Part shown: positions 2,581 to 37,531 of the stretch, one piece after another | How positions within the stretch are numbered: position 1 is the first letter of the stretch | Layout: each line of letters begins with the position of its first letter | Sequence record: OR167180 | Direction: 5' to 3' (one strand) | DNA length: 64,000 nt | From: Escherichia phage MIZ4 | Notes under the pieces: generated by a model | Database searches by the model: none | Told to the model about the DNA's origin: nothing | Seen by the model: only the letters and a program-made list of their open reading frames with translations | Translations under genes and position numbers: made by a program

Positions 2581-2622
2581 TCAATTTTTATAGAGTATAA
2601 CGGGGATTTCTCCCCGCGTCAA

Positions 2623-3657
2623 CTAACTTTTTGCGCTATTTACTTCGGCTAAAAGTTCATCAGAAATACGCTTGACCGCCGCAAGTTCTTCCGGTTCTAG
2701 GTTTTGTTCTTCCAGATATTCATAGACCATCTGAATAGTGCTTTTAACTTCAATAACACCTGTTTCCTGTGATGCGCTACTCTCCAGCTTATGGACCACT
2801 TTTAGCTTGTGTACAACGGCCTCTAACGCGCTTTCTAACTTAGTTAACCCATTATCAGCGACCGTTGCGATAAGACGCACACTAAGCCCCTTAAAGCGTT
2901 CTACATCGATTTTATCATCTGACGGGTAAGTGATACGCACATGATAAGTTTTGTCATTCTGGATAAACTCTTTTTTGTGTGTATCGGTATCGAATACCCA
3001 AAACCCACGCGGATCGTTTTCGTCACCCGCCGTTAGTGTGTATGGTGTACCTATATACGTTACGTTACCGCCATCACTGATAGTATGAAAGTGACCCGAA
3101 AACACTTCACGGTATTTCTTTAGGAAGTCCGCGCTATAACCTTCGGATTTTAGCCCTTTATAGAAATAGTAACCGGACAATTCCCAATGGCCTACACAAT
3201 ATTCGCTGAATGAGTTTTGAATAAACTCTAAAATCTCTGATTTATTGTCATCACAAAACCACGGGAACAGATCAAATGATACACCATCAAAGGTGACTGT
3301 TTCCGGCTTATCAATAACCTTAATGCAATCATACTGGCTTAACACTTCACGCGGTGCGTTAGGCTGGATCTTGTTTCGTTTAAACATATCATGATTCCCA
3401 ACCGTGATATAACAAGTAATACCAGCCTCTTCCAGTAGCGGGATGATTTTCGTTCTATTAAAACGCATAGTTGCATGTGTGATTGCTTTTCGGCAATCAA
3501 ACCAGTCCCCTGTCTGAATCCATGCCTTAATATTATGTTTTTTTGAATAATCGACTGCCTTTTTAATAGTATCAAGAATATACTCATGTATCCACGGATC
3601 ATCGTTGCCGATACCAGTATGCAGATCACCCAAAAGCAAAATTTTCATATTATACAT
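2623..3657 (-). CDS. 47: Recombination endonuclease subunit gp47 (Mre11/SbcD-like phosphoesterase)
   Basis: MKILLLGDLHTG...IQTGDWFD...GNHD calcineurin-like phosphoesterase motifs; N-terminus aligns with recalled T4 gp47; true start may be the internal Met at ~3648. Confidence 0.9.
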   Translation of the reverse strand: MYNMKILLLGDLHTGIGNDDPWIHEYILDTIKKAVDYSKKHNIKAWIQTGDWFDCRKAITHATMRFNRTKIIPLLEEAGITCYITVGNHDMFKRNKIQPNAPREVLSQYDCIKVIDKPETVTFDGVSFDLFPWFCDDNKSEILEFIQNSFSEYCVGHWELSGYYFYKGLKSEGYSADFLKKYREVFSGHFHTISDGGNVTYIGTPYTLTAGDENDPRGFWVFDTDTHKKEFIQNDKTYHVRITYPSDDKIDVERFKGLSVRLIATVADNGLTKLESALEAVVHKLKVVHKLESSASQETGVIEVKSTIQMVYEYLEEQNLEPEELAAVKRISDELLAEVNSAKS

Positions 3658-3663
3658 AATCTC

Positions 3664-4218
3664 CTAAAAATTTTTAACACCATATTCACCAAAATAAAGA
3701 TCAACCGCTTTGTCATAAGCTCTGGCCGCATCTTCTTCGTTGACATAATACCCAAGAGATATTAGTTTATCATTATTTCGTATTCTTGCAACCCATTTCT
3801 TCGTATGTTTATGCCAGCTAACCCCTTTATACTTGCTTGCTTTATTCTTGTACTTTCCAACGTTACAAGCATTTTTCTTTGCGTCGGACTCTCTAAGATT
3901 GCGTGGTGCGTTGTTTAAAGGATTTCGGTCTATATGATCTATAATTTCTGGTTGTGTTCCATGCTCAAGAAACCATACAATACGATGTACATATGGCTTT
4001 AAAACCCTCCCATTATCCATAACAATTGCAATTTGGAGATGATCCTGACTTTTAAAAGTTTTTACTTTATCTCCTGCCTTATAAAACTTTCCTTCGTAAT
4101 TCTTTCCTCCGGCTCGGCTATTCTTTAAATGATAAAGAATACCATCGTCGTCATGTCTATATCTTTCTCGTATAATTCGTTGCGTTTCTTCATCCCACAA
4201 TTTGGAACGTCTACTCAT
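3664..4218 (-). CDS. HNH homing endonuclease with C-terminal AP2-type DNA-binding domain
   Basis: HNH motif IDHIDRNPLNN followed by AP2-like YKGVSWHKHTKKWVARIRNNDKLISLGYYVNEEDAARAYD; SD GAGGAAG upstream; sits where T4 carries alpha-gt. Confidence 0.75.
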   Translation of the reverse strand: MSRRSKLWDEETQRIIRERYRHDDDGILYHLKNSRAGGKNYEGKFYKAGDKVKTFKSQDHLQIAIVMDNGRVLKPYVHRIVWFLEHGTQPEIIDHIDRNPLNNAPRNLRESDAKKNACNVGKYKNKASKYKGVSWHKHTKKWVARIRNNDKLISLGYYVNEEDAARAYDKAVDLYFGEYGVKNF

Positions 4219-4308
4219 AGTCTCTTCCTCTCTTCGTTTTCGATGCTCTCACTATATCACAGAAAAATAAAAAGGGAAACCCCTTTCAGAGTCTCCCTTA
4301 TAAAGCCA

Positions 4309-4596
4309 TTACAGCATACTTAATACCGTTTGCCGTGTACTAATCCACATAGCAGAAAGCAGTTCTGGTGTGTGTGGCTGTTTGTAGATATCACGTAATT
4401 TTCCGATAGCGTAGATATACGCATCACGATTATCATCGATGATAGCTTGCTCAGCCCACCGCTTAAGTCGTGCAATCTCTCGCGAGTTCTTACGCAAGAT
4501 CTTTTCCGCTTTCTTAGCGGCTTTAGCCTCTAGTTCTGCTTGTACTTTGTCTACTTCATTCACTGCAATCTTGTCATGCTGTTCATTGCAAGTCAT
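4309..4596 (-). CDS. Hypothetical protein (95 aa), charged/coiled-coil
   Basis: ORF track; minus-strand array; no motif. Confidence 0.5.
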   Translation of the reverse strand: MTCNEQHDKIAVNEVDKVQAELEAKAAKKAEKILRKNSREIARLKRWAEQAIIDDNRDAYIYAIGKLRDIYKQPHTPELLSAMWISTRQTVLSML

Positions 4597-4597
4597 A

Positions 4598-4831
4598 TTA
4601 TTTTACCTCTGGGATATAATCAATTATTAAAGAAAATTCATCTTCTGATACATTATAGCTATGTGAGATTGTACCCGTCAAGACCTCAAGATCCGGTGAT
4701 TTGATATTGCACGGATCGATAATCACCGGAACGCCGCAATCTCTCAAAAATAATTTGGCGAAATACGGCACAAGGTCAGTTTCAAACTCTGCTTCTTCCA
4801 GCAAACGGGAAATGTTAATTTTCAATCTCAT
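4598..4831 (-). CDS. Hypothetical protein (77 aa)
   Basis: ORF track; abuts neighbours on same strand. Confidence 0.45.
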
Positions 4832-5348
4832 AAAATTGGTCCAGGCTAGGCAATTCCTCGGTCAATACATCTTCAACCTTTGGCGCTTTCGGTTTATTGA
4901 CCGATTCCTCGTAGTTGTTGATTTTATCGTAAATGTCCTGTATGAATGCCTCATCAGCAATCTGGCACATATCAGCGTCGCGTTCGTCATATACATGATG
5001 CACAAAATATTTGTATTTTGCGGCTGTCGCTGTTCTTTCTTTTTTAATGCGCTGCACAAAAGCATTAAAGCACGCTTGCGTGATGTAAGCATGAGGATTT
5101 TTATACTTTGTCTCGTCAAAATTAATCAAACCCTTGACCGCCGCTTCGATTCCATCGTCGATCATTTCTTCGCGCCATGTTTGACTATAGCCAGAAAAGT
5201 TAAAACGCCGTGATAGATTTTTAGAGATTTGCATAATTGCCAGGCCGATTTGGTCACTCATTGGCACTTGCCGACCTTCTGCTGCAATTCGTTGTTTCCA
5301 ACGGCAAATTTCTTCGTAAAGCTCTTTATTGTTTACATAATCAGACAC
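4815..5348 (-). CDS. 55: Late-transcription sigma factor gp55
   Basis: Central region [57 protein letters not shown] is nearly identical to recalled T4 gp55. Confidence 0.93.
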
Positions 5349-5388
5349 TTCGCACCCTCGCTATTATTTAGGAAATAACCCTTTCGGG

Positions 5389-6858
5389 CTATTCCCCATT
5401 ACCATTATACTTTCTTTGCTTAGTTATCCACACTCTAACCATCTCTACTGATTCACCGTCAGAGGGATCAAGAGTTTTTCCTTTTTTCTTCATGCGGTAC
5501 TTAAATCCGTTAAATCTTGCATTCTCTTGCTCGTTAAAGTCGAACATCTTTTTAAATGATTTTCTCCCTTTACGCTCACCGCATTCTAGCGGAATCATTC
5601 GGTCTGTTATTACATTGGCATTAGGTAGAAACGTTTTTAGATAATCTACCAACGCCCAATCAGGAACATATAGATTAACATTCTCCTTGCTCTCGTTGTC
5701 TCTCAGGTTACAACGCAAACATAATTGAAATGCTGGTTCCAGATAATCAGACACATGACGCGCTTTCAAAAACTCATTTGTCGGGAGATCACAACTATTA
5801 GCAAGACCTTTTAAAATATCAATCTCCCATCGTTGAGGGTTAAAGCTGAACATCACAGCAACATTTTTATGATGAATGTAAGAGTTAAGACCATAAGATC
5901 CGTAAGGTATCCGCTCACCAATACCATTTGTACACGCTTCACGGTCCCGATTCACGGTATAAATGAAGTCATCACCACATTCATTTTTAACCATATCAAC
6001 CAGACGTTCAAAGGTATTGTTTGTTTCTGACTGGTGACGCGACCATCGTTCGGAGTCCGTCATAAGGATGATGTTAACTCTATCTGTATTTTTATACTCT
6101 TTGAAATATAGTCTGGATTCTAGCGCACTCGGAACAAAATCGCAATTTGCATAGTATCGTAGATACTTCCCACTATATGTATCAAAGAGATTTGCACATG
6201 CTATCGTAACCTTTTTAAAGTCTCCCCACGTACCGTGTTTGTTATCGTTCAAGAAAACAATTTTCGACCCATTCTTCCGGTGGCCTTCGTTATGTTTTAC
6301 CATAACGTTGATTTTCTTCTCTAATAACGCCTCATAAAGCCCTCTAAGAGAAGAATCGATCATATCAGTACCATCCTTTGCACTTTCTATCTTTTCTTTG
6401 ATAGCGGCCTTCTCAGAGTCTTTTAGAACTAAGTTCTGTAGGCATTCCGATTCGTCGGCGATTGGTTCGCAATGCTTCGTGATAAGTTCAAGATTAGACT
6501 TAAACGGATACTCATTAAATTCAACCAGTTGAGGAACTTCATCAATGTAAAGAGCATAATCACCAAACATTTTTGAACGTTCCATATTAGATAACGCTGT
6601 ATGTGTAATGAATATCACATCAGCACCATCTTTAACTGATTGCATTATCGACGCTTGCACTGTCTTAAGGCTTCTTAGTCTTGTGCTATCAATCAAGACA
6701 GCACGACCGCCCATTCTTTTAAACTTATTGTAAGATTGTTCACTTAAAACACGAGATGGCGAAGCAATAACCGCTTTTTCTTTTGTCTCTAGGACGTGGG
6801 AAAGTATAGCATCAGTTTTCCCCGCCGCTGGCAATGCGATTAATGTTTCAATCTTCAT
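5389..6858 (-). CDS. P-loop NTPase of unknown function (489 aa)
   Basis: N-terminal Walker A-like ALPAAGKT and Walker B-like ALYIDEV; remainder Cys-containing with no recognised fold; not resembling T4 alpha-gt. Confidence 0.6.
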   Translation of the reverse strand: MKIETLIALPAAGKTDAILSHVLETKEKAVIASPSRVLSEQSYNKFKRMGGRAVLIDSTRLRSLKTVQASIMQSVKDGADVIFITHTALSNMERSKMFGDYALYIDEVPQLVEFNEYPFKSNLELITKHCEPIADESECLQNLVLKDSEKAAIKEKIESAKDGTDMIDSSLRGLYEALLEKKINVMVKHNEGHRKNGSKIVFLNDNKHGTWGDFKKVTIACANLFDTYSGKYLRYYANCDFVPSALESRLYFKEYKNTDRVNIILMTDSERWSRHQSETNNTFERLVDMVKNECGDDFIYTVNRDREACTNGIGERIPYGSYGLNSYIHHKNVAVMFSFNPQRWEIDILKGLANSCDLPTNEFLKARHVSDYLEPAFQLCLRCNLRDNESKENVNLYVPDWALVDYLKTFLPNANVITDRMIPLECGERKGRKSFKKMFDFNEQENARFNGFKYRMKKKGKTLDPSDGESVEMVRVWITKQRKYNGNGE

Positions 6859-7163
6859 TAGAAACCCTTACGTCGTGCTTTCTGGCATTTCTTGATCATT
6901 TTATCAGAAATTTCGCGCTTAGGTGCAATCTCTTTCACACCGAAAGCACTAATGCCAAATTCAGAGAGAATATATTCAACTAACAATTCACGCACACGCG
7001 CTTTACCGATATTCACGCCGTTATTTTTCAGATATGTCTGGCCTTCGACTTGCATCAGATCTAAATCAGCGTCGGTAATATTGATTTCTTCCATGCGCCC
7101 AAATCGAGAATAAACCATGTGTGCGATTGCATTGTGTACTAACATAATATATTCCTCACTCAA
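6858..7163 (-). CDS. Hypothetical protein (101 aa)
   Basis: ORF track; stop/start overlap with downstream P-loop gene. Confidence 0.5.
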   Translation of the reverse strand: MSEEYIMLVHNAIAHMVYSRFGRMEEINITDADLDLMQVEGQTYLKNNGVNIGKARVRELLVEYILSEFGISAFGVKEIAPKREISDKMIKKCQKARRKGF

Positions 7164-7164
7164 G

Positions 7165-8904: not shown

Positions 8905-8916
8905 AATATATTCCCC

Positions 8917-10569: not shown

Positions 10570-10644
10570 ATTTGATTCTCCTGTAAAGTTGTATCTCGTC
10601 TTGATGAATATAGTATAGGGGATCTCGTGATCCCCGTCAAGCAT

Positions 10645-11729: not shown

Positions 11730-11789
11730 GTTGTCCTCTCGTTGTTTTCGATGTGAGCATTATACATTAGCTAATCATATTGTCAACAC

Positions 11790-11821
11790 CCCAAAACGAA
11801 AAGCCGACCCTTTCGGATCGG
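11790..11821 (-). terminator. Intrinsic terminator downstream of nrdD
   Basis: Hairpin GCCGACCC-TTTCGG-ATCGGC at 11802-11821 followed on the minus strand by TTTTCGTTTTGG. Confidence 0.6.
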
Positions 11822-11828
11822 CTAAAAA

Positions 11829-14230: not shown

Positions 14231-14260
14231 AATATAATCCTCTCGTTGTTAAGTGGGAGT

Positions 14261-14288
14261 ATTATAGCATACTCCCTTCGCATGTCAA
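14261..14288 (-). promoter_or_regulatory. Sigma70-type early promoter (repeated cassette) for ORF 13736-14230
   Basis: Minus-strand TTGACA (14283-14288), 16-nt spacer, TATAAT (14261-14266); -10 lies inside palindrome GGGAGTAT..ATACTCCC. Confidence 0.5.
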
Positions 14289-15463: not shown

Positions 15464-15526
15464 AATATAATCCTCTCGTTGTTTAGATGGGAGTATCTTA
15501 CTACTCCCGTTTCATCATGTCAAGCG

Positions 15527-16374: not shown

Positions 16375-16437
16375 TGTTGATTCTCCTTCTTGATTAGATG
16401 GGAGTATTTTACTACTCCCGTTTCATGTTGTCAACTC

Positions 16438-17229: not shown

Positions 17230-18038
17230 TCTACGTTAGTTACATAAACTTCTTGCGTATCAGAAGACTTACCACCTGAACGATCTAGGCAATAGGTCTT
17301 ATTCAACAAGACGCAGTTTAAATCATTCCGCTTGATAAAGTCAAGAAGATGATCATTTACCTTTCCCTTATGATGTGTGACATTACTGATACCAAACTGA
17401 AAACCACGCGCCATAATAGATTCTACCCACTGATAGAATTTAATCTCTTCTTCTTCACTCCAGAACTTATTATATTCTGCCGATGTGATCCAATATGGCG
17501 GGTCCAAATAAACGAAATCACCTGGCAAGATCTCGATCTCGTCATAGCGACCAGACGTAAAACTGATTCGACCGTCTTTGTTTTCTTCCTTAAAATTCAG
17601 GACACGCTCTACCGCGTTTTCGTTAAAAGTCCGGCGACCAAAATTAGCATTAAATTCTCCCTTCCTGTTATGGCGGTTAATGTTGCTAAAACTGTGCTGA
17701 ATCAGAACAAACAGAGATAGCGGATCTGGATTCTCATTATACTTCTTACGGAATGCCATGTAAGCGTCTTTATCTTCGCGAGACAAACCATTTTCGGCAA
17801 TAATACGCTTGATCGTAGAAACCGGATCAGGACACTCGTCAATCGCTTTGTACGCGTCAATTAAGCGGTGATCATAGTCATTAGCCAGCACATCCCCTTC
17901 TACGTACAGAGACACGCTCAAGCCACCACAAAAGGCATCGACAAAGCGGTTATAGTGCTTAGGGAAATACTTACTAACACCAGGCAATAACTTTTCCTTA
18001 TTGCCCGTATAGGGAATTAAACCTAATGCTTTCTTCAT
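17226..18038 (-). CDS. dam: DNA N6-adenine methyltransferase Dam
   Basis: YTGNKEKLLP, FVDAFCGGLSVSL (AdoMet motif), GDFVYLDPPYWITSAEYNKFWSEEEE (DPPY) match recalled T4 Dam. Confidence 0.9.
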   Translation of the reverse strand: MKKALGLIPYTGNKEKLLPGVSKYFPKHYNRFVDAFCGGLSVSLYVEGDVLANDYDHRLIDAYKAIDECPDPVSTIKRIIAENGLSREDKDAYMAFRKKYNENPDPLSLFVLIQHSFSNINRHNRKGEFNANFGRRTFNENAVERVLNFKEENKDGRISFTSGRYDEIEILPGDFVYLDPPYWITSAEYNKFWSEEEEIKFYQWVESIMARGFQFGISNVTHHKGKVNDHLLDFIKRNDLNCVLLNKTYCLDRSGGKSSDTQEVYVTNVD

Positions 18039-19596: not shown

Positions 19597-19630
19597 AATA
19601 TAATCCTCACATCGTTCATTTGATGCGGTC

Positions 19631-19659
19631 ATTATATGATAACCGCATTTTCATGTCAA
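19631..19659 (-). promoter_or_regulatory. Sigma70-type early promoter cassette
   Basis: Minus-strand TTGACA (19654-19659), 17-nt spacer, TATAAT (19631-19636); flanked by inverted repeat ATGCGGT..ACCGCAT. Confidence 0.5.
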
Positions 19660-19665
19660 CAGTTT

Positions 19666-20263: not shown

Positions 20264-20342
20264 TTTTGATTCTCCTTAAGAAAGTATGTTTCGTTTTGAT
20301 GTGTGTAGTATAGGGGATACGTGATCCCCTGTCAACAACTTT

Positions 20343-20648
20343 TTATGATTTTAGTGAATTAACTAATACATCAAAATGATGTACAGAGCACACCTTATTA
20401 AACACATATTCATCATGTTTAGGAATAGCGCCTAACCGCTTTATTTCGCTCGTTGACACGATAAACCGTTTATCCGGTGCATTTACCTTATATGCTTCAA
20501 CAACGCACGGGAAACGCGTTTCAGAGAGTTCTGGATAGTTTTCTGAATCCATCAGGACAATGAATACCCTGTTACATTGATTGTAGAATCCTGTTTTTGA
20601 TTTCATCAAGTTTTCTTCTCTGTACAATTCGTGCAATCTTCCTTTCAT
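20343..20648 (-). CDS. Hypothetical protein; start uncertain
   Basis: Track ORF 20343-20672 begins at a GTG; first ATG at ~20648; overlaps upstream ORF in a different frame. Confidence 0.35.
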   Translation of the reverse strand: MKGRLHELYREENLMKSKTGFYNQCNRVFIVLMDSENYPELSETRFPCVVEAYKVNAPDKRFIVSTSEIKRLGAIPKHDEYVFNKVCSVHHFDVLVNSLKS

Positions 20649-20913
20649 GATTTCGTTGGTTCTTGTCTTCACAGTTTACCCACTCAACAAGATCTTTACC
20701 TAACTCGAAAGCCCATTCTCGGTCTTGCTTTACATTTTGTAGGTATGGACTTTCCGACACTCGACGAAGTGATCTTGTCGTAACAAGAATGATCCCAGGA
20801 ATGTTCGGATGTTCCTTTCCATATACAATAGGACGCGAGTCACTATCAATACCCTGTAAGAAGGTGTATCCTGAATCACTTAGGATCATATACATTTTCA
20901 TTTCATCCATCAC
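20572..20913 (-). CDS. Hypothetical protein (113 aa); overlaps next ORF by ~77-100 nt
   Basis: ORF track; unusually long out-of-frame overlap with ORF 20343-20672. Confidence 0.4.
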   Translation of the reverse strand: MMDEMKMYMILSDSGYTFLQGIDSDSRPIVYGKEHPNIPGIILVTTRSLRRVSESPYLQNVKQDREWAFELGKDLVEWVNCEDKNQRNHERKIARIVQRRKLDEIKNRILQSM

Positions 20914-21167
20914 AGTTTCCTCAACCAGTTATTAAAGCGAGTAAACCATGATGCTTTTCGTGCTTCTTTTACTTTATATGCACGCAAACCACTGAAACAC
21001 CATTCATAATCATCACTGAAACATGATTCAACAGGAACACCCGCATTTCGTAGTTCTCTGGTCTTTATCATAAATCCTTGACATAAGGGGCGACCTTCAA
21101 CAATGATAGGAAGTTTAACTTTTTCCATGAAAGTATACCCAGCACGGTCAATAATTTCAATCTTCAT
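20910..21167 (-). CDS. Hypothetical protein (85 aa), family C paralog
   Basis: MKIEIIDRAGYTFMEKVKLPIIVEGRP closely resembles 21186-21389. Confidence 0.5.
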   Translation of the reverse strand: MKIEIIDRAGYTFMEKVKLPIIVEGRPLCQGFMIKTRELRNAGVPVESCFSDDYEWCFSGLRAYKVKEARKASWFTRFNNWLRKL

Positions 21168-21185
21168 AATATAATCCTCAATTGA

Positions 21186-21389
21186 TTACACTTCCCAGGC
21201 TTCTTTGCTAAGAAAACACCATTTATACTCAGGAGAATAACCTTTAATCGGTACTCCAGCTTTTTGTAATTCCTGCGTTTCAACAACATAATCATGCCCA
21301 TACGGTCGGCCTTCCACGATGATAGGAAGTTTAACACCTTTCATGAAAGAATATCCACCATCGTCAAAAATTTCAATTTTAATTTTCAT
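21186..21389 (-). CDS. Hypothetical protein (67 aa), family C paralog
   Basis: MKIKIEIFDDGGYSFMKGVKLPIIVEGRP. Confidence 0.5.
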   Translation of the reverse strand: MKIKIEIFDDGGYSFMKGVKLPIIVEGRPYGHDYVVETQELQKAGVPIKGYSPEYKWCFLSKEAWEV

Positions 21390-22574: not shown

Positions 22575-22604
22575 ATTTGATTCTCCTTAGTTGGTATGGT
22601 TATC

Positions 22605-22632
22605 ATTATACGGGGATTTCTCCCCGTGTCAA
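22605..22632 (-). promoter_or_regulatory. Sigma70-type early promoter cassette with palindromic spacer
   Basis: Minus-strand TTGACA (22627-22632), spacer CGGGGAGAAATCCCCG (perfect palindrome), TATAAT (22605-22610). Confidence 0.55.
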
Positions 22633-22635
22633 CAA

Positions 22636-22858
22636 TTAAATGATCTCTGCTTCACCGTTAAGGAAGAAGGACCATGTTTTGTTAGGATAACGAAGCGCCC
22701 ATGATTCAGCAGTTTTAACACCAGCTTCGAACAATTGACGGCTGGTTACTTTAGCCATACCATCTTCGATGGCAACGTTTTCAATAATCATCGGGTACTT
22801 AGCGCCACGCATGAAACCGAAGCCAGCGGAAGATTTGATAATTTTAACAGTTGCCATT
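22636..22858 (-). CDS. Hypothetical protein (~74 aa), family C paralog
   Basis: Trimmed to MATVKIIKSSAGFGFMRGAKYPMIIEN; the track start at 22911 runs through the upstream promoter. Confidence 0.5.
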
Positions 22859-22943
22859 TTTGATTCTCCTAGAAAGTGTCGTGTTTCGATGGGTGTATTA
22901 TGCAATAACACCGGATCGCTGTCAACACTTTATAAGAAAAATT

Positions 22944-24109: not shown

Positions 24110-24138
24110 TTTGGTTCTCCTTTGTTGTCGATGTGTGC

Positions 24139-24167
24139 ATTATGCTATACCATATTCCGGTTGTCAA
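24139..24167 (-). promoter_or_regulatory. Sigma70-type early promoter cassette
   Basis: Minus-strand TTGACA (24162-24167), 17-nt spacer, CATAAT (24139-24144), immediately downstream of terminator hairpin. Confidence 0.55.
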
Positions 24168-24171
24168 CACC

Positions 24172-24207
24172 TAAAAACGAAAAAGCCACCCTTTCGGATG
24201 GCTTTTT
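24172..24207 (-). terminator. Intrinsic terminator (hairpin flanked by A and T runs)
   Basis: GCCACCC-TTTCGG-ATGGC hairpin at 24185-24202 with flanking AAAAA/TTTTT; terminator plus promoter forms a PeSL-like unit. Confidence 0.6.
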
Positions 24208-24437
24208 GATTATATTTTATTCACGTCCATTTGTATAGTAGTGTTTGAATCGACCTTTGCTAAACTCGTTAAACATAGTAACCAATTCACCATCCCTTTC
24301 CAATGATAAACCTTCCTCGTCTTAGACGGGTCTTCCGATTAGGTAGTAATTGAACACGCGAAAGTATGAGGAAGCCAAATAGTTGTGTTAATGCTAGTAT
24401 TCTTTTACTTCTGGTATGCATCCCACAGTGACTAACA

Positions 24438-27903: not shown

Positions 27904-27988
27904 TAATTTCTCCTGTTTGGCTTAACTTTCTGATTCCATAATATAGCCCTATCACCAGAAAGTCAAGCATTATTTTAACCAATTTCCA

Positions 27989-28411
27989 TTATTGGTCTAC
28001 CTTCAAAACAACCGCCGACATTTTACCCGCCAGTCGTTTTGGATTCTCTATAATCATTCGGCAGCATAGACCGTGATATGGCTTACCCTCTTCGATTAGA
28101 TCTACTGTCATCCCGATCCACATGTTACCGTCAGTAATTTCTAATCGATTCGGTCGGTCTTCCATTTTCAGGAAGTCGAAGATCTCCGGCAAACGAGTTT
28201 CTATCTTATTGAATAGTTCCATTGTCTTATGTTCATCGATATGACGATCGGTTAGACGGTCGATCATATGCGGACTAAATCGAATGAAAATATACTCACC
28301 GTAACCATCATTCAAGCACTTTTCTTTGATCTGCGCATTGGTTTTGCGCATTTCGGTTTCGAAGAATCTACGCAGCTTACTACGGCGAACATGTACGTTA
28401 ATTGTTTCCAT
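27989..28411 (-). CDS. regB: RegB-like sequence-specific endoribonuclease
   Basis: Trimmed to METINVHVRRSKLRRFFETE...NRLEITDGNMWIG, which resembles the recalled T4 RegB N-terminus and RLEITDGNLW block; position between tk and the endolysin fits T4. Confidence 0.5.
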   Translation of the reverse strand: METINVHVRRSKLRRFFETEMRKTNAQIKEKCLNDGYGEYIFIRFSPHMIDRLTDRHIDEHKTMELFNKIETRLPEIFDFLKMEDRPNRLEITDGNMWIGMTVDLIEEGKPYHGLCCRMIIENPKRLAGKMSAVVLKVDQ

Positions 28412-28751: not shown

Positions 28752-28782
28752 TTTAATACTCCTTTGTTGTTTCGATGGGGGT

Positions 28783-28811
28783 ATATTACTACCCCCGATC
28801 ATGTGTGTCAA
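28783..28811 (-). promoter_or_regulatory. Sigma70-type early promoter cassette
   Basis: Minus-strand TTGACA (28806-28811), 17-nt spacer, TAATAT (28783-28788) within palindrome GGGGGTA..TACCCCC. Confidence 0.45.
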
Positions 28812-29986: not shown

Positions 29987-30580
29987 TTAAACGTATTCAG
30001 CAACAACATTATGTTTAAAATTACCGCTCCTTTTTGGATTTGGATTTTTCAATCGACTATGTATTAAATTTTTGTTGTATCCGGTTGCTTTAGACGCTTC
30101 GCCAATACTTTGATAAACAACACCATTAACACGAATCGGACGAGACTTATTAAACAGTTTATTCAATCCGGCATCATATGCATGGTTTTGGTTTTCTTGC
30201 CTCGTTGCGATCTCAAGATTCCAAACACAATTACAAGATTTTACCCCACTTTTATGATTAATTTCAAGACCTTCACAATCACCTATAAAGTGTTCAGCAA
30301 CTAGTCTATGAATATAGCGATATTTCTTACTTTCCCCATCATGCAAGCATACATTATAATAACCATCACCAGCGCGTTTAGGTCGGAGTAGTTTACCTTT
30401 AACACGTTTTATAGTAGGGAACTCACCAAATTGATTTCTCTGGATAAACGGAATCTCGCGGTCTAATGAACGGATTCGACCATAGTTAGACACTTGATAA
30501 AAACTTTCATATCCTTTAATTGGCTTCCATATCTCAGGGATTTCTACACCATCAATAACAACAAGTTTAAATTCTTCCAT
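29987..30580 (-). CDS. HNH homing endonuclease (NUMOD4-HNH-NUMOD1-like architecture)
   Basis: YQVSNYGRIRS (NUMOD4-like), HNH region CLHDGESKKYRYIHRLVAEHF...INHKSG...NLEIATRQEN, C-terminal VNGVVYQSIGEASKATG helix-turn-helix-like. Confidence 0.8.
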   Translation of the reverse strand: MEEFKLVVIDGVEIPEIWKPIKGYESFYQVSNYGRIRSLDREIPFIQRNQFGEFPTIKRVKGKLLRPKRAGDGYYNVCLHDGESKKYRYIHRLVAEHFIGDCEGLEINHKSGVKSCNCVWNLEIATRQENQNHAYDAGLNKLFNKSRPIRVNGVVYQSIGEASKATGYNKNLIHSRLKNPNPKRSGNFKHNVVAEYV

Positions 30581-31663: not shown

Positions 31664-31725
31664 GGTAAAGTCTCCAGTGAACGGGGAGAGATCCTTAGAT
31701 TGTCTCCCCGTTGATGGTTAATATT

Positions 31726-32115
31726 TTATTTTGGATCTGGGTATTTGCTGTGTGGTAGCTGAAAATGAACACCGTCTTTAAAACTAGTCCAATCCCCACC
31801 CCATTCAACAGGAACACCCAATTCTCGACCAGCTTGTTTAAATGCATCCGCGATCATGCGGTAGTATTTCATGTTCCATGTATCCTTATCTTTCGGATAC
31901 GCTACAACGTCAACCGCGAAACCGTGAAGATGACGAGATTTCATAGTCTTAGATTTACCTTCCGCAACATATTTCTTTTGCGTTTCTAGACTACGTACAC
32001 CTTCCGTAATACCAAAATCGACCGGAGTCAGTTCTAACGCACGATGAACGACTTTTACCAGGTCAGGATGCACACCAACAAGCCGATCTTTGCTTCTTTG
32101 AGATAATTTAAACAT
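31726..32115 (-). CDS. Endolysin, peptidase M15 family (L-alanyl-D-glutamate endopeptidase-like)
   Basis: Zinc-ligand pattern SRHLHGFAVDV ... DGVHFQL; overall resemblance to recalled T5-type endolysin; replaces T4 lysozyme e at the equivalent position. Confidence 0.8.
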   Translation of the reverse strand: MFKLSQRSKDRLVGVHPDLVKVVHRALELTPVDFGITEGVRSLETQKKYVAEGKSKTMKSRHLHGFAVDVVAYPKDKDTWNMKYYRMIADAFKQAGRELGVPVEWGGDWTSFKDGVHFQLPHSKYPDPK

Positions 32116-32143
32116 TATTCACCCCCTTTGTGAGTGATAATAT

Positions 32144-32335: not shown

Positions 32336-32336
32336 A

Positions 32337-32603: not shown

Positions 32604-32746
32604 GATGCGCCGCTAATCAGACAACCCGCACCAAGTGATTCCCACCAGATCAGAGAAGCGACAACAACACAGAATCCCCATACTACCGCAATCACAACAT
32701 AGACAAGGGTCGCCCACAACATATATTTGTTCATAATAAATCCCAT
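32555..32746 (-). CDS. Small hydrophobic membrane protein (63 aa)
   Basis: ORF track; overlaps neighbour so start uncertain. Confidence 0.45.
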   Translation of the reverse strand: MGFIMNKYMLWATLVYVVIAVVWGFCVVVASLIWWESLGAGCLISGASCLITGVIVGFLVSED

Positions 32747-32919
32747 TCACCAAACAAATAAGAAAAAAGCCATATCAACAGAAACGAGGCAATTGATCCG
32801 GCAAGCAAAATGATATTAGAGAATCCGCCGTCTATCCAGGCGACAAAACAGAATACGCCAGTATAGAAGCATAAACCAATTACAAAGCATACTATAAGCA
32901 ACCATAGACAAAACGCCAT
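32731..32919 (-). CDS. Small hydrophobic membrane protein (62 aa)
   Basis: ORF track. Confidence 0.45.
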   Translation of the reverse strand: MAFCLWLLIVCFVIGLCFYTGVFCFVAWIDGGFSNIILLAGSIASFLLIWLFSYLFGEWDLL

Positions 32920-32980
32920 AGAAAGCCCTCCATCGAGATAAATTAGTGCGGGTAGGGGACTGCACTACCCGCTTTGTTAA

Positions 32981-33139: not shown

Positions 33140-33141
33140 TA

Positions 33142-33480
33142 TCACACCTTTAAAGTCATAGACGCATAAACATTAATGCCAGGCCAGTTAGGATCGCAAT
33201 TATACTCAACATCCCACAAATAAAGCGGTTTAGATGTATCAGCCAAGTTTTTAAAATCTTCTACCCACATTTCAAGGCTATATGATGGATAAACTAGGCT
33301 ATCATATCCGCCGTAACGTTGGCCTACTGGTCGGTCAGTAAAAACTACATCAAGATCCGGTAATTCTTTTTCAAGGATAACCGCCAGCGCATAAATCAGA
33401 CGGTCTTCCTTGTTACGCTGCCGTAGGACCGTTGTCAGTTGGTTTTTCTGGTTCACTAGCAAGCACCTCCACATTTTCAC
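33142..33480 (-). CDS. Hypothetical protein (112 aa)
   Basis: ORF track; overlaps upstream ORF by ~68 nt so start uncertain. Confidence 0.45.
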   Translation of the reverse strand: MKMWRCLLVNQKNQLTTVLRQRNKEDRLIYALAVILEKELPDLDVVFTDRPVGQRYGGYDSLVYPSYSLEMWVEDFKNLADTSKPLYLWDVEYNCDPNWPGINVYASMTLKV

Positions 33481-33733
33481 AGAATGAAATTTTCACAGAC
33501 ACAATTTTACCATAAGTGAAGAATGAATATACATTATCGATATATTCAACGTCACCTACAATCACATCAAACTGCGGATCAGCAACCGCCGCAACATATT
33601 CTACCAGTTCATCAAGAGAATGCAACTTAATTTCATCAATTCGGCTGTATTTGGTTGCATCTTTGATTTTAAAACCACGTTCTTTCAGCTTATCAATTAG
33701 AATTTCACGCGGAGTTTCAAACAGTTTGCTCAT
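33413..33733 (-). CDS. Hypothetical protein (106 aa)
   Basis: ORF track. Confidence 0.5.
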   Translation of the reverse strand: MSKLFETPREILIDKLKERGFKIKDATKYSRIDEIKLHSLDELVEYVAAVADPQFDVIVGDVEYIDNVYSFFTYGKIVSVKISFCENVEVLASEPEKPTDNGPTAA

Positions 33734-33755
33734 AGTATAATCCTCACATAGTTAA

Positions 33756-33950
33756 TCAATGGTCAATAATCTTGCACATTATAACAGAAAGAACAAAGAC
33801 CGCAACCCACATATAGATCCCAGCAATCAATGCAATTTCAATATCACAATATCCAAGATATACAACAGGAATAAAAACAAACATACAGACCAGCGCAAAG
33901 AAACTAGCAAAGGCGCTAGAAAATCCGATAGCAGTATTAGTAATATTCAT
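33756..33950 (-). CDS. Small hydrophobic membrane protein (64 aa)
   Basis: ORF track. Confidence 0.5.
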   Translation of the reverse strand: MNITNTAIGFSSAFASFFALVCMFVFIPVVYLGYCDIEIALIAGIYMWVAVFVLSVIMCKIIDH

Positions 33951-33951
33951 A

Positions 33952-34134
33952 TTAACAATCCTCGCGGCTTAAGTCAACAGCAATTGCATACAGCATAATG
34001 AATATGCTAGCCGATCCGAGAATCAATACACCCTCACATTTTGAAACTCGCTCATCAAAATGTAACATTATCCATCCGAGGATGTTAAAGGCGCAGACCG
34101 CGCCTATGTTCGCTAACCAATTAATCTTTTTCAT
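33952..34134 (-). CDS. Small hydrophobic membrane protein (60 aa)
   Basis: ORF track. Confidence 0.5.
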   Translation of the reverse strand: MKKINWLANIGAVCAFNILGWIMLHFDERVSKCEGVLILGSASIFIMLYAIAVDLSREDC

Positions 34135-34142
34135 AATATACC

Positions 34143-34469
34143 TTAGAAAGAAACAGTTTTCAAGAAATCCAGATTTTTAGTACCGAAAACAGAAAAGTAG
34201 TGTTTTCCTTTTTCGGTTTTAGAGAAAGCGATTGTCTTCTCTACATGGTGACGGAAGCCAGACAGACGATCACCCAGGTCAAGGCGGCAAGCGTAAGTAG
34301 TGCCGTTTTCGAAAGTAACCTCGATTTGAGTTTTGTCATATTCGCTTTCATAGGCTTTTGCTGCCGCTTCCAGTGCTTTACGCTCGAAGTCTTCGAAGTG
34401 GAATACTTCGTTTGCGTTAGCGAATACAGAAGATTCAGAGAAGATAACTTTAACAGATACTGGTTTCAT
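34143..34469 (-). CDS. Hypothetical protein (108 aa)
   Basis: ORF track; start directly after conserved leader GGAGTATCAAA. Confidence 0.55.
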   Translation of the reverse strand: MKPVSVKVIFSESSVFANANEVFHFEDFERKALEAAAKAYESEYDKTQIEVTFENGTTYACRLDLGDRLSGFRHHVEKTIAFSKTEKGKHYFSVFGTKNLDFLKTVSF

Positions 34470-34511
34470 TTTGATACTCCTTAGTAGTTCGTGTTTCGTT
34501 TCGATGGGTGT

Positions 34512-34540
34512 ATTATGCTATACACCCTCTCGCGTGTCAA
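34512..34540 (-). promoter_or_regulatory. Sigma70-type early promoter cassette
   Basis: Minus-strand TTGACA (34535-34540), 17-nt spacer, CATAAT (34512-34517); palindrome GGGTGTAT..ATACACCC spans the -10. Confidence 0.55.
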
Positions 34541-34548
34541 CAACTTTT

Positions 34549-34737
34549 TTAGTATTTTTTCATAATTTCTAGAGCAGTTTCTACAGCACCTTTCCAACCT
34601 TCCCACATAATGGACATAGTAAGGAAGTTAAAGCACCCGCAGGAATCAACCTTTTTAGAGATAAACCATTCTACAAACGCTTCGCTCATACCATGCTCTT
34701 TAGCGGATTCGCGTAATTGTTCAATTTGGTCTTCCAT
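34549..34737 (-). CDS. Hypothetical protein (62 aa)
   Basis: ORF track. Confidence 0.45.
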   Translation of the reverse strand: MEDQIEQLRESAKEHGMSEAFVEWFISKKVDSCGCFNFLTMSIMWEGWKGAVETALEIMKKY

Positions 34738-34746
34738 AGTATCACC

Positions 34747-34935
34747 TCAGCATTTAACATTATTCAAACGATTTTGAAAGTACACATAGCAAGCATAATT
34801 TTGCTTTGGCTGTACTGTATCAGATAAACATGCTTTTACAGCCTCGCGGTCCGATGGGTCTACACCCTCAGCTTTAAGTAATGCTAAAATCTGGTTATAG
34901 CGTACTCTTAGTTGCACTAATGGTTTCTCCCCCAT
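34747..34935 (-). CDS. Hypothetical protein (62 aa)
   Basis: ORF track. Confidence 0.45.
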   Translation of the reverse strand: MGEKPLVQLRVRYNQILALLKAEGVDPSDREAVKACLSDTVQPKQNYACYVYFQNRLNNVKC

Positions 34936-34945
34936 ATTACCCCCC

Positions 34946-35167
34946 TTATAGTTGGTCAGCGATGTAAGCGTGACAAGCGCGGAGTTTCATTAATGCACTA
35001 CCTTTCACTTCGCCTACGATGTTCATAACTTCTAAGCGGTCGGATGGATTCATCTTAGAGCACCAGATCTGGTTAGCCAATTCCAGTTTACTCATATTTG
35101 GTTCCATCTCAAACAGTTCACGCTCAAAGTCGATAATTTCTTTTGCTGCGTCTTTAAAGTTAATCAT
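34946..35167 (-). CDS. Hypothetical protein (73 aa)
   Basis: ORF track; start after conserved leader GGGAGAATCAAA. Confidence 0.5.
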   Translation of the reverse strand: MINFKDAAKEIIDFERELFEMEPNMSKLELANQIWCSKMNPSDRLEVMNIVGEVKGSALMKLRACHAYIADQL

Positions 35168-35233
35168 TTTGATTCTCCCGTTTCGTTGATGGTTGTATTG
35201 TAGGGGAGTTATCCTCCCCTGTCAACACTTTTA

Positions 35234-35419
35234 TCAGAAATATGCAATATAGTTTGCCAGTCCTACAGAGTCATCATTCGGCATTGCTTTTACTGCCAGT
35301 TCAAACCCTGCTTCAACTTTCTGTTTAGCGGATTCTTCGTTATAACCCCAGATTACCAGAATAGCTACTACGTTTTCTTTGCTTACTGCTTTCAGTGCTT
35401 TAGTGATGCGACGTGCCAT
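35234..35419 (-). CDS. Hypothetical protein (61 aa)
   Basis: ORF track; start after conserved leader. Confidence 0.5.
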   Translation of the reverse strand: MARRITKALKAVSKENVVAILVIWGYNEESAKQKVEAGFELAVKAMPNDDSVGLANYIAYF

Positions 35420-35471
35420 AATTTGATTCTCCGTTTAAGAAAGTGTGTTTCGTTTCGATGGGTGTATTATG

Positions 35472-35500
35472 CTATAGGCCGGATCTGGTGTCAACAACTT
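35472..35500 (-). promoter_or_regulatory. Sigma70-type early promoter cassette
   Basis: Minus-strand TTGACA (35495-35500), 17-nt spacer, CATAAT (35472-35477), then conserved leader CATCGAAACGAAACAC...GGAGAATCAAATT-ATG. Confidence 0.55.
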
Positions 35501-35515
35501 TTTTAAAAAAATTTT

Positions 35516-35547
35516 AGGCAATAAAAAAGCCACTCCGAAGAGTGGCT
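35516..35547 (-). terminator. Intrinsic terminator
   Basis: GCCACTC-TTCGG-AGTGGC hairpin at 35529-35546 followed on the minus strand by TTTTTTATTGCC. Confidence 0.65.
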
Positions 35548-35695
35548 TATAGGGAAGGTAGCGAATCTTCCTTGTCTCCAACCTGCTAGCGGCCTAGCAA
35601 GTGAATGCTTTAGCGTACCGGGTCGCCCATACGCTGTAATAAATGCGGCTAGGTGACGTCCAAATCATTCTAACCGCGCTGTCTTTAGTTCACTA
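35548..35695 (-). ncRNA. Candidate structured non-coding RNA / structured 3' UTR (uncharacterised)
   Basis: ~150 nt ORF-free segment between ORF 35696-35914 and the terminator; relatively GC-rich with several short inverted repeats (GGAAG..CTTCC, TGCTAG-CGGC-CTAGCA, GCGTA..TACGC, GCGG..CCGC); no tRNA-like T-loop. Confidence 0.25.
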
Positions 35696-35914
35696 TTATT
35701 TATATCGCTTTCTCTCGCGACGTTTTTGATCTTCTTCCTTGATAGAGTTAAATGCATCAAAAAGACACATGACACTAATAATAAACATAACCGTATTTTC
35801 TACGATATCCCACGGCTTCGCATCAGTACAGATCCCCCAAACGGTAAGAAATGCAAATAGTGCAGAAGAGATCACAAGCATGATACTTGCTAAGATATAA
35901 AAAGTCATTTTCAT
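35696..35914 (-). CDS. Small hydrophobic membrane protein (72 aa)
   Basis: ORF track; TM helices; basic C-terminus. Confidence 0.5.
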   Translation of the reverse strand: MKMTFYILASIMLVISSALFAFLTVWGICTDAKPWDIVENTVMFIISVMCLFDAFNSIKEEDQKRRERKRYK

Positions 35915-36105
35915 GGTTTTACCTCAATTCTTCGATATTCATCACACATCCACACAGTAAGCAAGAATCCCAACACATAAGCAACAAAATACGTTAATAC
36001 TTCTTCTGGTTCGGTGCTATGCGCCATCATCAGACCAGCGAGAAAGGTCTTAACAATTACATTTAAAATAATTAGCCACGCAAATAATTTCATCGTTTGC
36101 CCCAT
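35911..36105 (-). CDS. Small hydrophobic membrane protein (64 aa)
   Basis: ORF track. Confidence 0.5.
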   Translation of the reverse strand: MGQTMKLFAWLIILNVIVKTFLAGLMMAHSTEPEEVLTYFVAYVLGFLLTVWMCDEYRRIEVKP

Positions 36106-36329
36106 TTCGGTCGAGTCTTTTCAAACTTATACATTCCGTAACAATCTCGAATCATCCACGTAACAAGAGCACCAGTCAACACCGACAATACACAGAAGAA
36201 GTAAAACGGTCCGGTTGCATTATCAACATGAGCAAGCCAGGTAAAGAAAACACATGCTAAGAATGTAAAGAACATCATAAAGCACAAGAAAGCGAAATAT
36301 TTTATACTACTCATAGCGCCACCATACAA
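36090..36329 (-). CDS. Small hydrophobic membrane protein (79 aa)
   Basis: ORF track. Confidence 0.5.
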   Translation of the reverse strand: MYGGAMSSIKYFAFLCFMMFFTFLACVFFTWLAHVDNATGPFYFFCVLSVLTGALVTWMIRDCYGMYKFEKTRPKWGKR

Positions 36330-36417
36330 CAGATCATAAGAAACCCCAACGCAATAAGAATTGCATCAAATTTAGTGAACTCCGGTCCACCTATCAACAT
36401 CATTCGTTCCTGTTCAT

Positions 36418-36615
36418 TCATAGATCACAGAGCCATCTTAAAGCACCACATAAAGCGAGCAGAATACTAGGTATAAACGAGACTAAAACAAGTTTACAAA
36501 AATCATCTAAGGTAACACCGGAATAGCTACCTACTGTAACAACACCGATCATCAGACACAGAAAGAAAACAAATGCAATCAGAAACAAAGTATTGCTAAA
36601 CAGTTTAGTGATCAT
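36418..36615 (-). CDS. Small hydrophobic membrane protein (65 aa)
   Basis: ORF track. Confidence 0.5.
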   Translation of the reverse strand: MITKLFSNTLFLIAFVFFLCLMIGVVTVGSYSGVTLDDFCKLVLVSFIPSILLALCGALRWLCDL

Positions 36616-36639
36616 TAGACACCCCCACGACGATCAATT

Positions 36640-36810
36640 TCAAAAACTTTTTTTACCATCAACGAAGCATGTCACAACTGCCTCGTTGACTTCCGCAAAT
36701 TGTTGTGTTACCCACTTAAGGTCAGATCGAAACAATGTTCTATTAATAACAAATGTTTTACCGCTCTTATCCTTACCCATAAATTTTGCTTTAACCATAT
36801 CCAATTCCAT
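36640..36810 (-). CDS. Hypothetical small protein (~56 aa), not in ORF track
   Basis: Manual translation MELDMVKAKFMGKDKSGKTFVINRTLFRSDLKWVTQQFAEVNEAVVTCFVDGKKSF preceded by SD AGGTGA; coordinates approximate. Confidence 0.35.
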   Translation of the reverse strand: MELDMVKAKFMGKDKSGKTFVINRTLFRSDLKWVTQQFAEVNEAVVTCFVDGKKSF

Positions 36811-36819
36811 ATTATCACC

Positions 36820-36978
36820 TTATTTGCTAATCGCTAAACCTAATCCGAAGAGAGCACCCGAGGCTACAGTATACCCGAAAGTTTCAAAGGCAGTAAAGAC
36901 ATCTAAGCCACCAGCTAACAGAGTTGCAGTAAACAGAGTACCAGCTACGAACATAAAAGTTTTACCGATAAATTTCAT
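36820..36978 (-). CDS. Small hydrophobic membrane protein (~52 aa), not in ORF track
   Basis: Manual translation MKFIGKTFMFVAGTLFTATLLAGGLDVFTAFETFGYTVASGALFGLGLAISK directly after the conserved GGAGAATCAAA leader; coordinates approximate. Confidence 0.4.
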   Translation of the reverse strand: MKFIGKTFMFVAGTLFTATLLAGGLDVFTAFETFGYTVASGALFGLGLAISK

Positions 36979-37044
36979 TTTGATTCTCCTTTCGTTTGTT
37001 TGTGGGGGTATCTTACTACCCCCGTTTCATGTTGTCAACTATTT

Positions 37045-37422
37045 TTAAGAATATTTTACTTCGTCTACAATGTCTTTCATGACATTGATTTCCATTCCGG
37101 TCAGAACACGTTGGAACATGTGCTGCACATACGCTTTCAGGTATTCATTTGATGGCTTACTATCGAAAGTCTTTTTAGTGTAGTAGTCATCACCGAAAGC
37201 TACTGTAATTACATTTTCGTCGTCGTTCCAAGCGATATAAGCAAATTTGCCGTTATCCCAGAAGCGAGCACTAATTGCTACTTTTGTTGAATCGAATCCT
37301 ACTTCGCTGTGAGATTCAAGAACTACTTGCGTACCAGTTTCTTTATGAATGTAGTAGCGGGATACTAAGTCAAAGTTACGGGTGTAGTGACATTCGAATT
37401 TATCTTTAAACATCATCATCAT
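37045..37422 (-). CDS. Hypothetical protein (~125 aa)
   Basis: Trimmed to MMMMFKDKFECHY, the ATG after the GGAGAATCAAA leader; the track start at 37491 runs through the promoter. Confidence 0.5.
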   Translation of the reverse strand: MMMMFKDKFECHYTRNFDLVSRYYIHKETGTQVVLESHSEVGFDSTKVAISARFWDNGKFAYIAWNDDENVITVAFGDDYYTKKTFDSKPSNEYLKAYVQHMFQRVLTGMEINVMKDIVDEVKYS

Positions 37423-37459
37423 TTTGATTCTCCTAAGTGTGTTTCGTTTCGATATGTGC

Positions 37460-37488
37460 ATTATGCTATAGTCGTTTATGGTTGTCAA
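37460..37488 (-). promoter_or_regulatory. Sigma70-type early promoter cassette
   Basis: Minus-strand TTGACA (37483-37488), 17-nt spacer, CATAAT (37460-37465), immediately downstream of terminator hairpin. Confidence 0.55.
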
Positions 37489-37493
37489 CACCT

Positions 37494-37524
37494 AAAAACA
37501 AAAAACCCCGAAAAATTTTCGGGG
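37494..37524 (-). terminator. Intrinsic terminator downstream of 57B-like gene
   Basis: CCCCGAAAA-ATTTTCGGGG hairpin at 37506-37524 followed on the minus strand by TTTTTTGTTTTT. Confidence 0.65.
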
Positions 37525-37531
37525 TATAAAA

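Follow-up and report, generated by a model that had tools for sequence, protein, structure and literature searches.

This study concerns a family of promoter/hairpin/leader cassettes in a 64,000-nucleotide stretch of DNA from Escherichia phage MIZ4 (sequence record OR167180; hereafter the window, meaning this whole stretch), which are identified here as promoter-early stem-loops (PeSLs). Positions 1-41,000 of the window are a minus-strand array of early genes in the order gene 46/47, nrdG/D, 49, dam, tk, vs, regB, e, dmd, 57B/57A, 1, 3, 2 and 4; beyond 41,000 baseplate and neck genes lie on the plus strand. Between 14000 and 24000 the window is 100% identical to the Krischvirus Escherichia phage MIZ5 (OR167181.1), and its identity is 95.3% to RB49 and 94.7% to Phi1; the window thus belongs to an RB49-group T4-type phage, the group in which PeSLs were defined. 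A tRNA scan of the window found 0 tRNAs, RB49 being likewise published as without tRNAs (Nolan et al. 2006), and no family of Rfam 15 matched anywhere in the window at the gathering threshold.

PeSLs were defined in RB49 and phi1 by Arbiol, Comeau, Kutateladze, Adamia and Krisch (2010; Genome Biol Evol 2:140; PMC2839356). They consist of a stop codon in an AT-rich tract, the -35 and -10 boxes of a sigma-70 promoter, a polyG/polyC stem-loop, a Shine-Dalgarno sequence and an ATG; they fall into five subclasses based on the position of the stem and number 51-52 per genome. A spacer of 16-18 nt and a location in hyperplastic regions, mostly before genes whose function is not known, also characterise the family. 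The initial annotation of the window, which had called its units PeSL-like, named the family correctly: the phage is of the RB49 group and most copies are positional orthologues of cassettes of RB49, phi1 and GEC-3S, in which most cassettes align together with both flanks at 93-100%, and promoters and terminators are annotated at the matching sites of GEC-3S. The annotation's remark that hairpins in the promoter spacer are less usual is not supported, as the same paper gives the position between -35 and -10, or overlapping -10, as the commonest in phi1 and RB49. The observation of these units is therefore a correct rediscovery of published PeSLs, with nothing new in the identity of the family.

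All 16 copies listed in the initial annotation were located on the minus strand, and 14 of their -35 coordinates (the low end of TTGACA, in plus-strand numbering) are exact; the other two are shifted by 2 and 6 bases, so that 2615 becomes 2617-2622 and 35495 becomes 35489-35494. A profile hidden Markov model (HMM) trained on the 16 listed copies finds 17 copies on the minus strand at E<0.05 between 2589 and 37498; the 17th, absent from the earlier list, is at 11759-11786. The same HMM detects a single plus-strand copy at 51209-51236, and two further degenerate units (4219-4308 and 27904-27988) were spotted by eye among the intergenic gaps. The pattern TTGACA-N15-19-TANNNT is present more often than by chance: the window has 29 instances where 5.55 +/- 2.41 would be expected, a count reached in 0 of 100 shuffles. 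When the window-derived profile is applied to the complete genome of a close relative, 46 matches are obtained at E up to 1, 45 of which are on the minus strand. The cassettes of the window are the following.

2569..2622, minus strand: PeSL with a spacer stem; -35 TTGACG 2617-2622, stem CGGGGAGAAATCCCCG 2601-2616, -10 TATACT 2594-2599; fold -12.9 kcal/mol, z -3.7; the stop codon of gene 47 (sbcD) adjoins the -35.
4219..4308, minus strand: degenerate copy missed by the HMM; canonical terminator hairpin 4272-4299 with T-tract, extended -10 TGATATAGT 4251-4259, CATCGAAAAC leader.
10570..10644, minus strand: PeSL with a spacer stem; -35 TTGACG 10635-10640, stem GGGGATCACGAGATCCCC 10618-10635, -10 TATACT 10612-10617; z -3.3.
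11730..11828, minus strand: terminator (11802-11823, with T-tract) then promoter (TTGACA-16-TATAAT, 11759-11786); no embedded stem.
14231..14288, minus strand: PeSL with a -10-spanning stem; -35 14283-14288, stem GGGAGTAT..ATACTCCC 14255-14276, -10 TATAAT 14261-14266; z -3.8; the stop codon TGA of the upstream gene (14285-14287) is inside the -35 and the leader is GAGAGGATTATATT-ATG.
15464..15526, minus strand: PeSL with a -10-spanning stem; -35 15518-15523, stem GGGAGTA..TACTCCC 15489-15508, -10 TAAGAT 15495-15500.
16375..16437, minus strand: PeSL with a -10-spanning stem, upstream of the open reading frame (ORF) that follows gene 49; -35 16429-16434, stem 16400-16419, -10 TAAAAT 16406-16411.
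19597..19665, minus strand: PeSL with a -10-spanning stem of unrelated sequence, ATGCGGTTAT..ATGACCGCAT 19623-19648; -35 19654-19659, -10 19631-19636; z -3.9.
20264..20342, minus strand: PeSL with a spacer stem, GGGGAT..ATCCCC 20313-20329; -35 20330-20335, -10 TATACT 20307-20312.
22575..22635, minus strand: PeSL with a spacer stem, CGGGGAGAAATCCCCG 22611-22626, at the site of the gene 38 module of RB49, phi1, GEC-3S and JK32.
22858..22943, minus strand: PeSL with a weak -10-spanning stem, GGTGT..ACACC 22892-22912; -8.3 kcal/mol, z -1.4; -35 22920-22925.
24110..24212, minus strand: terminator (24185-24202, with T-tract) then promoter (TTGACA-17-CATAAT, 24139-24167); no embedded stem.
27904..27988, minus strand: divergent copy missed by the HMM; TTGACT 27961-27966, 15-nt spacer, TATATT 27940-27945; a long imperfect inverted repeat (27926-27962, -13.6 kcal/mol) encloses the promoter, which is annotated as such in GEC-3S.
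28752..28811, minus strand: PeSL with a -10-spanning stem, GGGGGTA..TACCCCC 28777-28796; -35 28806-28811, -10 TAATAT 28783-28788; -15.8 kcal/mol.
34470..34548, minus strand: PeSL with a -10-spanning stem, GGGTGTAT..ATACACCC 34506-34527; -35 34535-34540, -10 CATAAT 34512-34517; z -4.6.
35168..35233, minus strand: PeSL with a spacer stem, GGGGAG..CTCCCC 35203-35219; -35 35220-35225, -10 TACAAT 35197-35202; z -4.5.
35420..35550, minus strand: terminator (35529-35546, with T-tract) then promoter (35466-35494); no embedded stem.
36979..37044, minus strand: PeSL with a -10-spanning stem, GGGGGTA..TACCCCC 37004-37023; -35 37033-37038, -10 TAAGAT 37010-37015; z -3.9.
37423..37531, minus strand: terminator (37506-37524, with T-tract) then promoter (37460-37488); no embedded stem.
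51157..51265, plus strand: the sole plus-strand copy; terminator 51173-51192, promoter 51209-51236; it precedes small ORFs inserted among the baseplate genes.

The sole mismatch between the window and the MIZ5 record over 64 kb, an extra A at 37505 (T on the coding strand), is located in the terminator T-tract upstream of the promoter with its -35 at 37488.

The 18 copies share a common anatomy, and 17 of them lie in the minus-strand early array, from gene 47 to gene 57B, where most of the downstream genes are annotated as hypothetical. The sigma-70 boxes are TTGACA or TTGACG and TATAAT, CATAAT, TAAGAT, TATACT or similar, separated by a spacer of 16-17 nt; an A-rich AAAAAGTTG-like tract upstream of the -35 holds the stop codon of the upstream gene, and the Shine-Dalgarno sequence and start codon of the downstream gene are at the 3' end of the cassette. 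Both types of leader described in the initial annotation are present, CATCGAAACGAAAC...GGAGAATCAAA-ATG and GAGAGGATTATATT-ATG. The stem is in the spacer in five copies, across the -10 in eight (seven strong and one weak) and replaced by an upstream terminator in five, to which one degenerate copy is added. Spacer stems begin at or beside the last base of the -35 and finish at the -10; in the -10-spanning stems the 3' arm occupies the discriminator to about position -1. The palindromes noticed in the promoters are real: in 12 of the 18 segments the fold is one hairpin, with an energy between -10 and -16 kcal/mol and z between -2.6 and -4.6; among the other six, one is intermediate (22925, -8.3 kcal/mol) and five are without a hairpin. 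The promoter assignment has a counterpart in RB49, whose early-promoter consensus agrees with the mapping of the 5' ends of early transcripts and prefers C at positions -3 to -1 (Nolan et al. 2006); in the -10-spanning stems these C-preferring positions form the 3' arm. Mapped transcription starts in Krischvirus were looked for in the literature, with no result apart from a citation of Desplats et al. 2002.

Embedded stems and ordinary upstream terminators do not occur together in one cassette. The upstream hairpins of five copies are GC-rich and followed by a U-tract, as in Rho-independent terminators; such a canonical upstream terminator is found in 0 of the 12 copies with an embedded stem and in 5 of the 6 copies that lack one (Fisher p = 7e-4), and in the whole genome of a close relative, OZ035808, the corresponding figures are 0/25 and 11/20 (p = 1.7e-5). 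Where the stem is embedded, no more than 0-18 nt separate the -35 from the stop codon of the gene before it, and once this codon falls inside the hexamer. This closeness, together with the mutual exclusion, makes the embedded stem look like a space-saving equivalent of a terminator.

Pairing in the stems is maintained by selection. The initial annotation had proposed that symmetry rather than sequence is selected, and this is backed both by covariation and by the far stronger conservation of the stems compared to the adjoining spacer and loop bases. An alignment of 22 distinct -10-spanning stems has 98.7% of its cells paired, with two pairs changed on both sides (AU/GC/UA/GU; GC/AU); the covariation score is reached by 0 of 500 shuffles, and slid registers pair at 44-73%. 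For this alignment two central loop bases were cut from six 22-nt hairpins in order to share one structure line, the edits being limited to loops. Among six relatives, variable columns are 8/185 in stems and 23/88 in unpaired spacer or loop (p = 4e-7), with 1/78 in the -35 and 0/78 in the -10; in the cassette at 10570..10644 variation among relatives is confined to loop bases. Stems are still intact in metagenomic relatives whose flanks are 85-87% identical. A basal C·A mismatch has been mended in two ways, each by a single substitution, as T-A in relatives at 16434 and as C-G in OZ035808 at 15523. In the GC-rich cores of well-formed stems, to which the count was limited by leaving out helix extensions into the -35 ACA and the -10 TAT, every non-Watson-Crick pair, read on the sense strand, is a G·T or T·G, and A·C does not occur; the other stem mismatches, one G·A and one T·C, are in two degenerate copies.

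Functional data are available for cassettes of phi1 (PMC2839356). Promoter and terminator activity in vivo is reported for the spacer-type cassettes 206/205, 193/192 and 211/210; in particular, the promoter of PeSL206/205 reached about 13,000 Miller units and most clones acquired mutations in the -35 or -10, and the stem-loop of PeSL211/210 lowered lacZ expression comparably to rrnB T1. When the assayed phi1 cassettes are read directly, both are of the spacer type, TTGACAGGGGATCnnnGATCCCCT(T)ATAmT, and paralogues of the window copies 20335 and 10640; the stem at 20264..20342 is of the type of these two experimentally assayed cassettes. Formation of mini-circles has also been shown by others.

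Comparison of the window with six relatives reveals about eleven indel or replacement events, one of which is clearly bounded by cassettes. At the gene 38 tail-fibre adhesin module (22598/22636), RB49, phi1, GEC-3S and JK32 carry a terminator-gene 38-terminator-promoter arrangement (about 1.1 kb) where the window has the spacer-type cassette 22575-22635; the breakpoints are at the upstream stop codon and just past the -10, the counterpart in RB49 is 20369-21302, and LF73P4 has the same arrangement as the window. A tblastn search found no gp38 homologue in the 64-kb window. The swap of this module for a single cassette indicates that a host-range gene behaves as a cassette-bounded module. The cassettes are also mosaic, their promoter half or leader half being common to different partners; for example, the promoter half of the copy at 15523 recurs in 16434 and its leader half in 14288. 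This mosaicism is consistent with exchange among cassettes.

The best explanation, to which we assign a probability of about 0.9, is that these units are the compact intergenic PeSL cassettes of the RB49 group, whose hairpins would act on read-through RNA and which would also serve as recombination linkers; within it, we infer that -10-spanning stems could terminate or attenuate transcription and that recombination could use these particular copies. Each cassette fills the 55-110 bp between the stop codon of an early gene and the next ATG, and its near-consensus sigma-70 promoter would be read by unmodified host RNA polymerase right after infection. Transcription is predicted to start about 7 nt past the -10, at the A of CCCATC; the resulting leader would be short, poor in G and closed by a strong Shine-Dalgarno sequence. 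Where there is room, the hairpin is an ordinary terminator upstream of the -35; where there is none, the stop codon being 0-18 nt from the -35, it is built into the promoter, either within the spacer or over the -10 together with the discriminator. Since the transcript of the cassette itself would start downstream of the stem, the stem would be present only in RNA coming from upstream; on such read-through RNA it may act by termination or attenuation, as a 3'-end barrier, or both, and in this way would shield the small early transcription units from one another. Finally, about 50 near-identical cassettes across variable regions would provide the homology for recombination events that insert, delete or swap the intervening genes.

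Several observations weigh against this explanation. The initial annotation had named canonical U-tract terminators as the competing account of the palindromes, and the embedded stems are without a U-tract (nT 0-2.4 versus 3.3-5.4 for the canonical terminators of the window), so that they do not fit that account and are not canonical intrinsic terminators: what follows a -10-spanning stem is a AUCGAAAC-like tail that is nearly free of U, and spacer stems are trailed only by the -10 hexamer (UAUAAU). A d'Aubenton-Carafa-type score, used for ranking only, gives -11 to -69 for embedded stems and +13 to +35 for the canonical terminators of the window. The stem assayed in phi1 is of the spacer type and not -10-spanning, and a lacZ reporter assay cannot tell termination from processing or destabilisation of RNA. 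The covariation is drawn from paralogues sharing common ancestry, so that independent events are few. As regards recombination, the enrichment of cassettes at indel breakpoints is weak, with 4 of 23 breakpoint ends falling at cassettes (binomial P = 0.03, the ends not being independent), and in four events the inserted element is an HNH or AP2-HNH homing-endonuclease gene that has nothing to do with a cassette; homing endonucleases explain at least as many indels in this stretch as cassettes. Homing-endonuclease genes variably present among the relatives are at 3664-4218 and 29987-30580, with insertion points near 17232 and at 31741-31772.

The missing U-tract also speaks for an alternative, according to which the embedded stems, chiefly the -10-spanning ones, are not terminators but stabilisers of RNA 3' ends or processing signals, trimming of read-through RNA back to the hairpin or cleavage next to it giving discrete, stable monocistronic early mRNAs. 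Pairing selected on the sense strand, the placement of the stems right where the upstream ORF ends, genes of RNA metabolism annotated in the same region (regB, dmd and goF-like) and the enrichment of GGAG in the Shine-Dalgarno region of cassette-led genes all agree with it; on the other hand, the assayed stem cut reporter expression as strongly as rrnB T1, for which termination is the simpler cause (PMC2839356). This reading, which overlaps with the best explanation in that both act on upstream RNA and is compatible with it, is possible but rather unlikely. RegB enters here through a short motif: GGAG is the cleavage motif of T4 RegB, and the gene at 27989-28411, annotated as an endoribonuclease, is a RegB homologue. 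Of the 18 cassette-led genes, 14 have GGAG no more than 20 nt from their start codon, compared with 21 of the 78 remaining genes on the minus strand (p about 1e-4); examples are the Shine-Dalgarno regions at 20264-20285, 22575-22595 and 34470-34490; in cassettes with the GAGAGGATTATATT leader GGAG is absent or only in a stem arm (GGGAGTA), not in the Shine-Dalgarno sequence. A link of RegB to the action of the stems is possible through putative RegB targets in the Shine-Dalgarno regions of the cassettes. A more specific proposal, that -10-spanning hairpins form a distinct RNA-level 3'-end barrier or processing mark which, with GGAG as putative RegB target, would set the lifetime of early mini-transcripts, is slightly more doubtful again.

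A site on duplex DNA, an idea also raised by the original PeSL authors, would shift the action from RNA to a protein: a phage protein, either dimeric or specific for structure, would bind GGGG...CCCC in the palindromes, which would be its operators or its targets for recombination, and once bound would switch early promoters off or start the exchange of cassettes. Most stems do open with GGG(G) and close with (C)CCC, and they overlap the spacer or -10, a place at which binding of a protein would keep RNA polymerase out. However, the half-sites differ (GGGAGTA, GGGGGTA, GGGTGTA, GGGGATA, GGGGATC, CGGGGA, ATGCGGT), the spacing between them (loops of 3-6 nt) and their placement relative to the promoter both vary, arm positions 4-5 covary freely, and copies with an ordinary upstream terminator have no palindrome, as expected of a terminator substitute and not of an operator. 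The mismatches tolerated in well-formed stems are only sense-strand G·T, as expected of RNA, and would favour folding of the sense RNA over a duplex-DNA site, their numbers being small. For these reasons the DNA-site model is disfavoured and appears improbable. Even less credible is that the stems are functionless and passively inherited from a few duplicated or converted ancestral cassettes. Many copies share long identical stretches, the cassettes are mosaic and the covariation therefore amounts to few independent events, which speaks for such inheritance; against it stand the unpaired spacer and loop bases within a few nucleotides of the stems, which vary six times more often among orthologues than the stem bases, the double-sided changes that preserve pairing and the two different single substitutions that each repair the same C·A mismatch at the stem base, and drift would not be expected to produce so strict an either/or relation with canonical terminators. 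Three other candidates were set aside: single-stranded hairpin promoters of the N4 type are judged unlikely, as the RB49-type phage group is not known to have a virion RNA polymerase; for cruciform extrusion stems of 7-8 bp are too short; and a role of the C-rich leader in Rho utilisation would require more than its approximately 25 nt.

Three non-coding or unannotated regions of the early array deserve mention. The 276-nt non-coding gap at 35420-35695 (minus strand), which ends in a canonical terminator, is located between the endolysin gene and 57B in a phage group devoid of tRNAs. Its segment 35520-35695 (176 nt) folds at -62.9 kcal/mol (z -4.2, 0/200 shuffles) into four or five hairpins, and conservation of the region is 96-99% across about 58 genomes of Krischvirus, while elsewhere it is absent. 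On the T4 map the cluster of tRNAs with rnaC and rnaD occupies the position matching this endolysin-57B gap, and the gap is a candidate for encoding a stable small RNA. The second gap, 24110-24437 (minus strand, 328 nt), precedes a terminator and promoter and has a fold that moderately beats shuffles (z -2.4); the locus is variable, with a 2139-bp ORF in JK32 and, in phi1, a different middle of the gap and an annotated 43-aa ORF084.1. Lenient Rfam scans of these two long gaps gave only sub-threshold matches at chance level. The region 32735-32980, unannotated in MIZ5, holds a 62-aa ORF starting with ATG (32731-32919, minus strand), which by position and matching length is probably a homologue of RB49 ORF106c and is preceded by a strong hairpin, GCGGGTAG..CTACCCGC.

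The general idea of PeSLs was published in 2010 and extended in 2014 for this very phage group: a promoter, an insulator and a recombination linker combined in one element help to explain the shuffling of accessory genes in T4-type phages, including that of the host-range adhesin. Compared to the PeSLs of RB49 and phi1, the cassettes of the window are in the same genus and at the same loci, with the same anatomy and a similar copy number per genome, and nothing substantive differs except at the gene 38 module of RB49 and phi1, whose place is taken in the window by one cassette. With respect to the accessible text of the 2010 paper, the additions made here are the either/or relation with terminators, the comparison of stem and loop conservation and the quantification of the missing U-tracts. 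The embedded stems resemble Rho-independent terminators in being GC-rich hairpins of 7-8 bp at the end of a gene, from which they differ in having no U-tract and in overlapping a functional promoter. Exact cassette patterns searched across 2.9 million IMG/VR viral contigs matched only Krischvirus-like contigs and no other genus. PeSL-like promoter-terminator motifs have been described in T4/PST and KVP40/nt-1 (Comeau, Arbiol and Krisch 2014; PMC4122927); these motifs, together with the elements of the T-even internal-protein locus, are likewise units of early promoter and stem-loop, placed on either side of variable genes and with a proposed role as recombination linkers. In contrast to PeSLs, the T4/PST and KVP40/nt-1 motifs are, according to their authors, analogues and not homologues, with a T4-type early promoter and weaker AT-rich stems without polyG/polyC. 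A wider comparison, made by the PeSL authors themselves, is with lambdoid morons and integron cassettes, which are also small accessory genes with their own promoter and terminator placed between conserved genes; in PeSLs, however, no integrase or attC-type site is involved, and the regulatory unit itself is the repeated homology through which exchange is proposed to take place.

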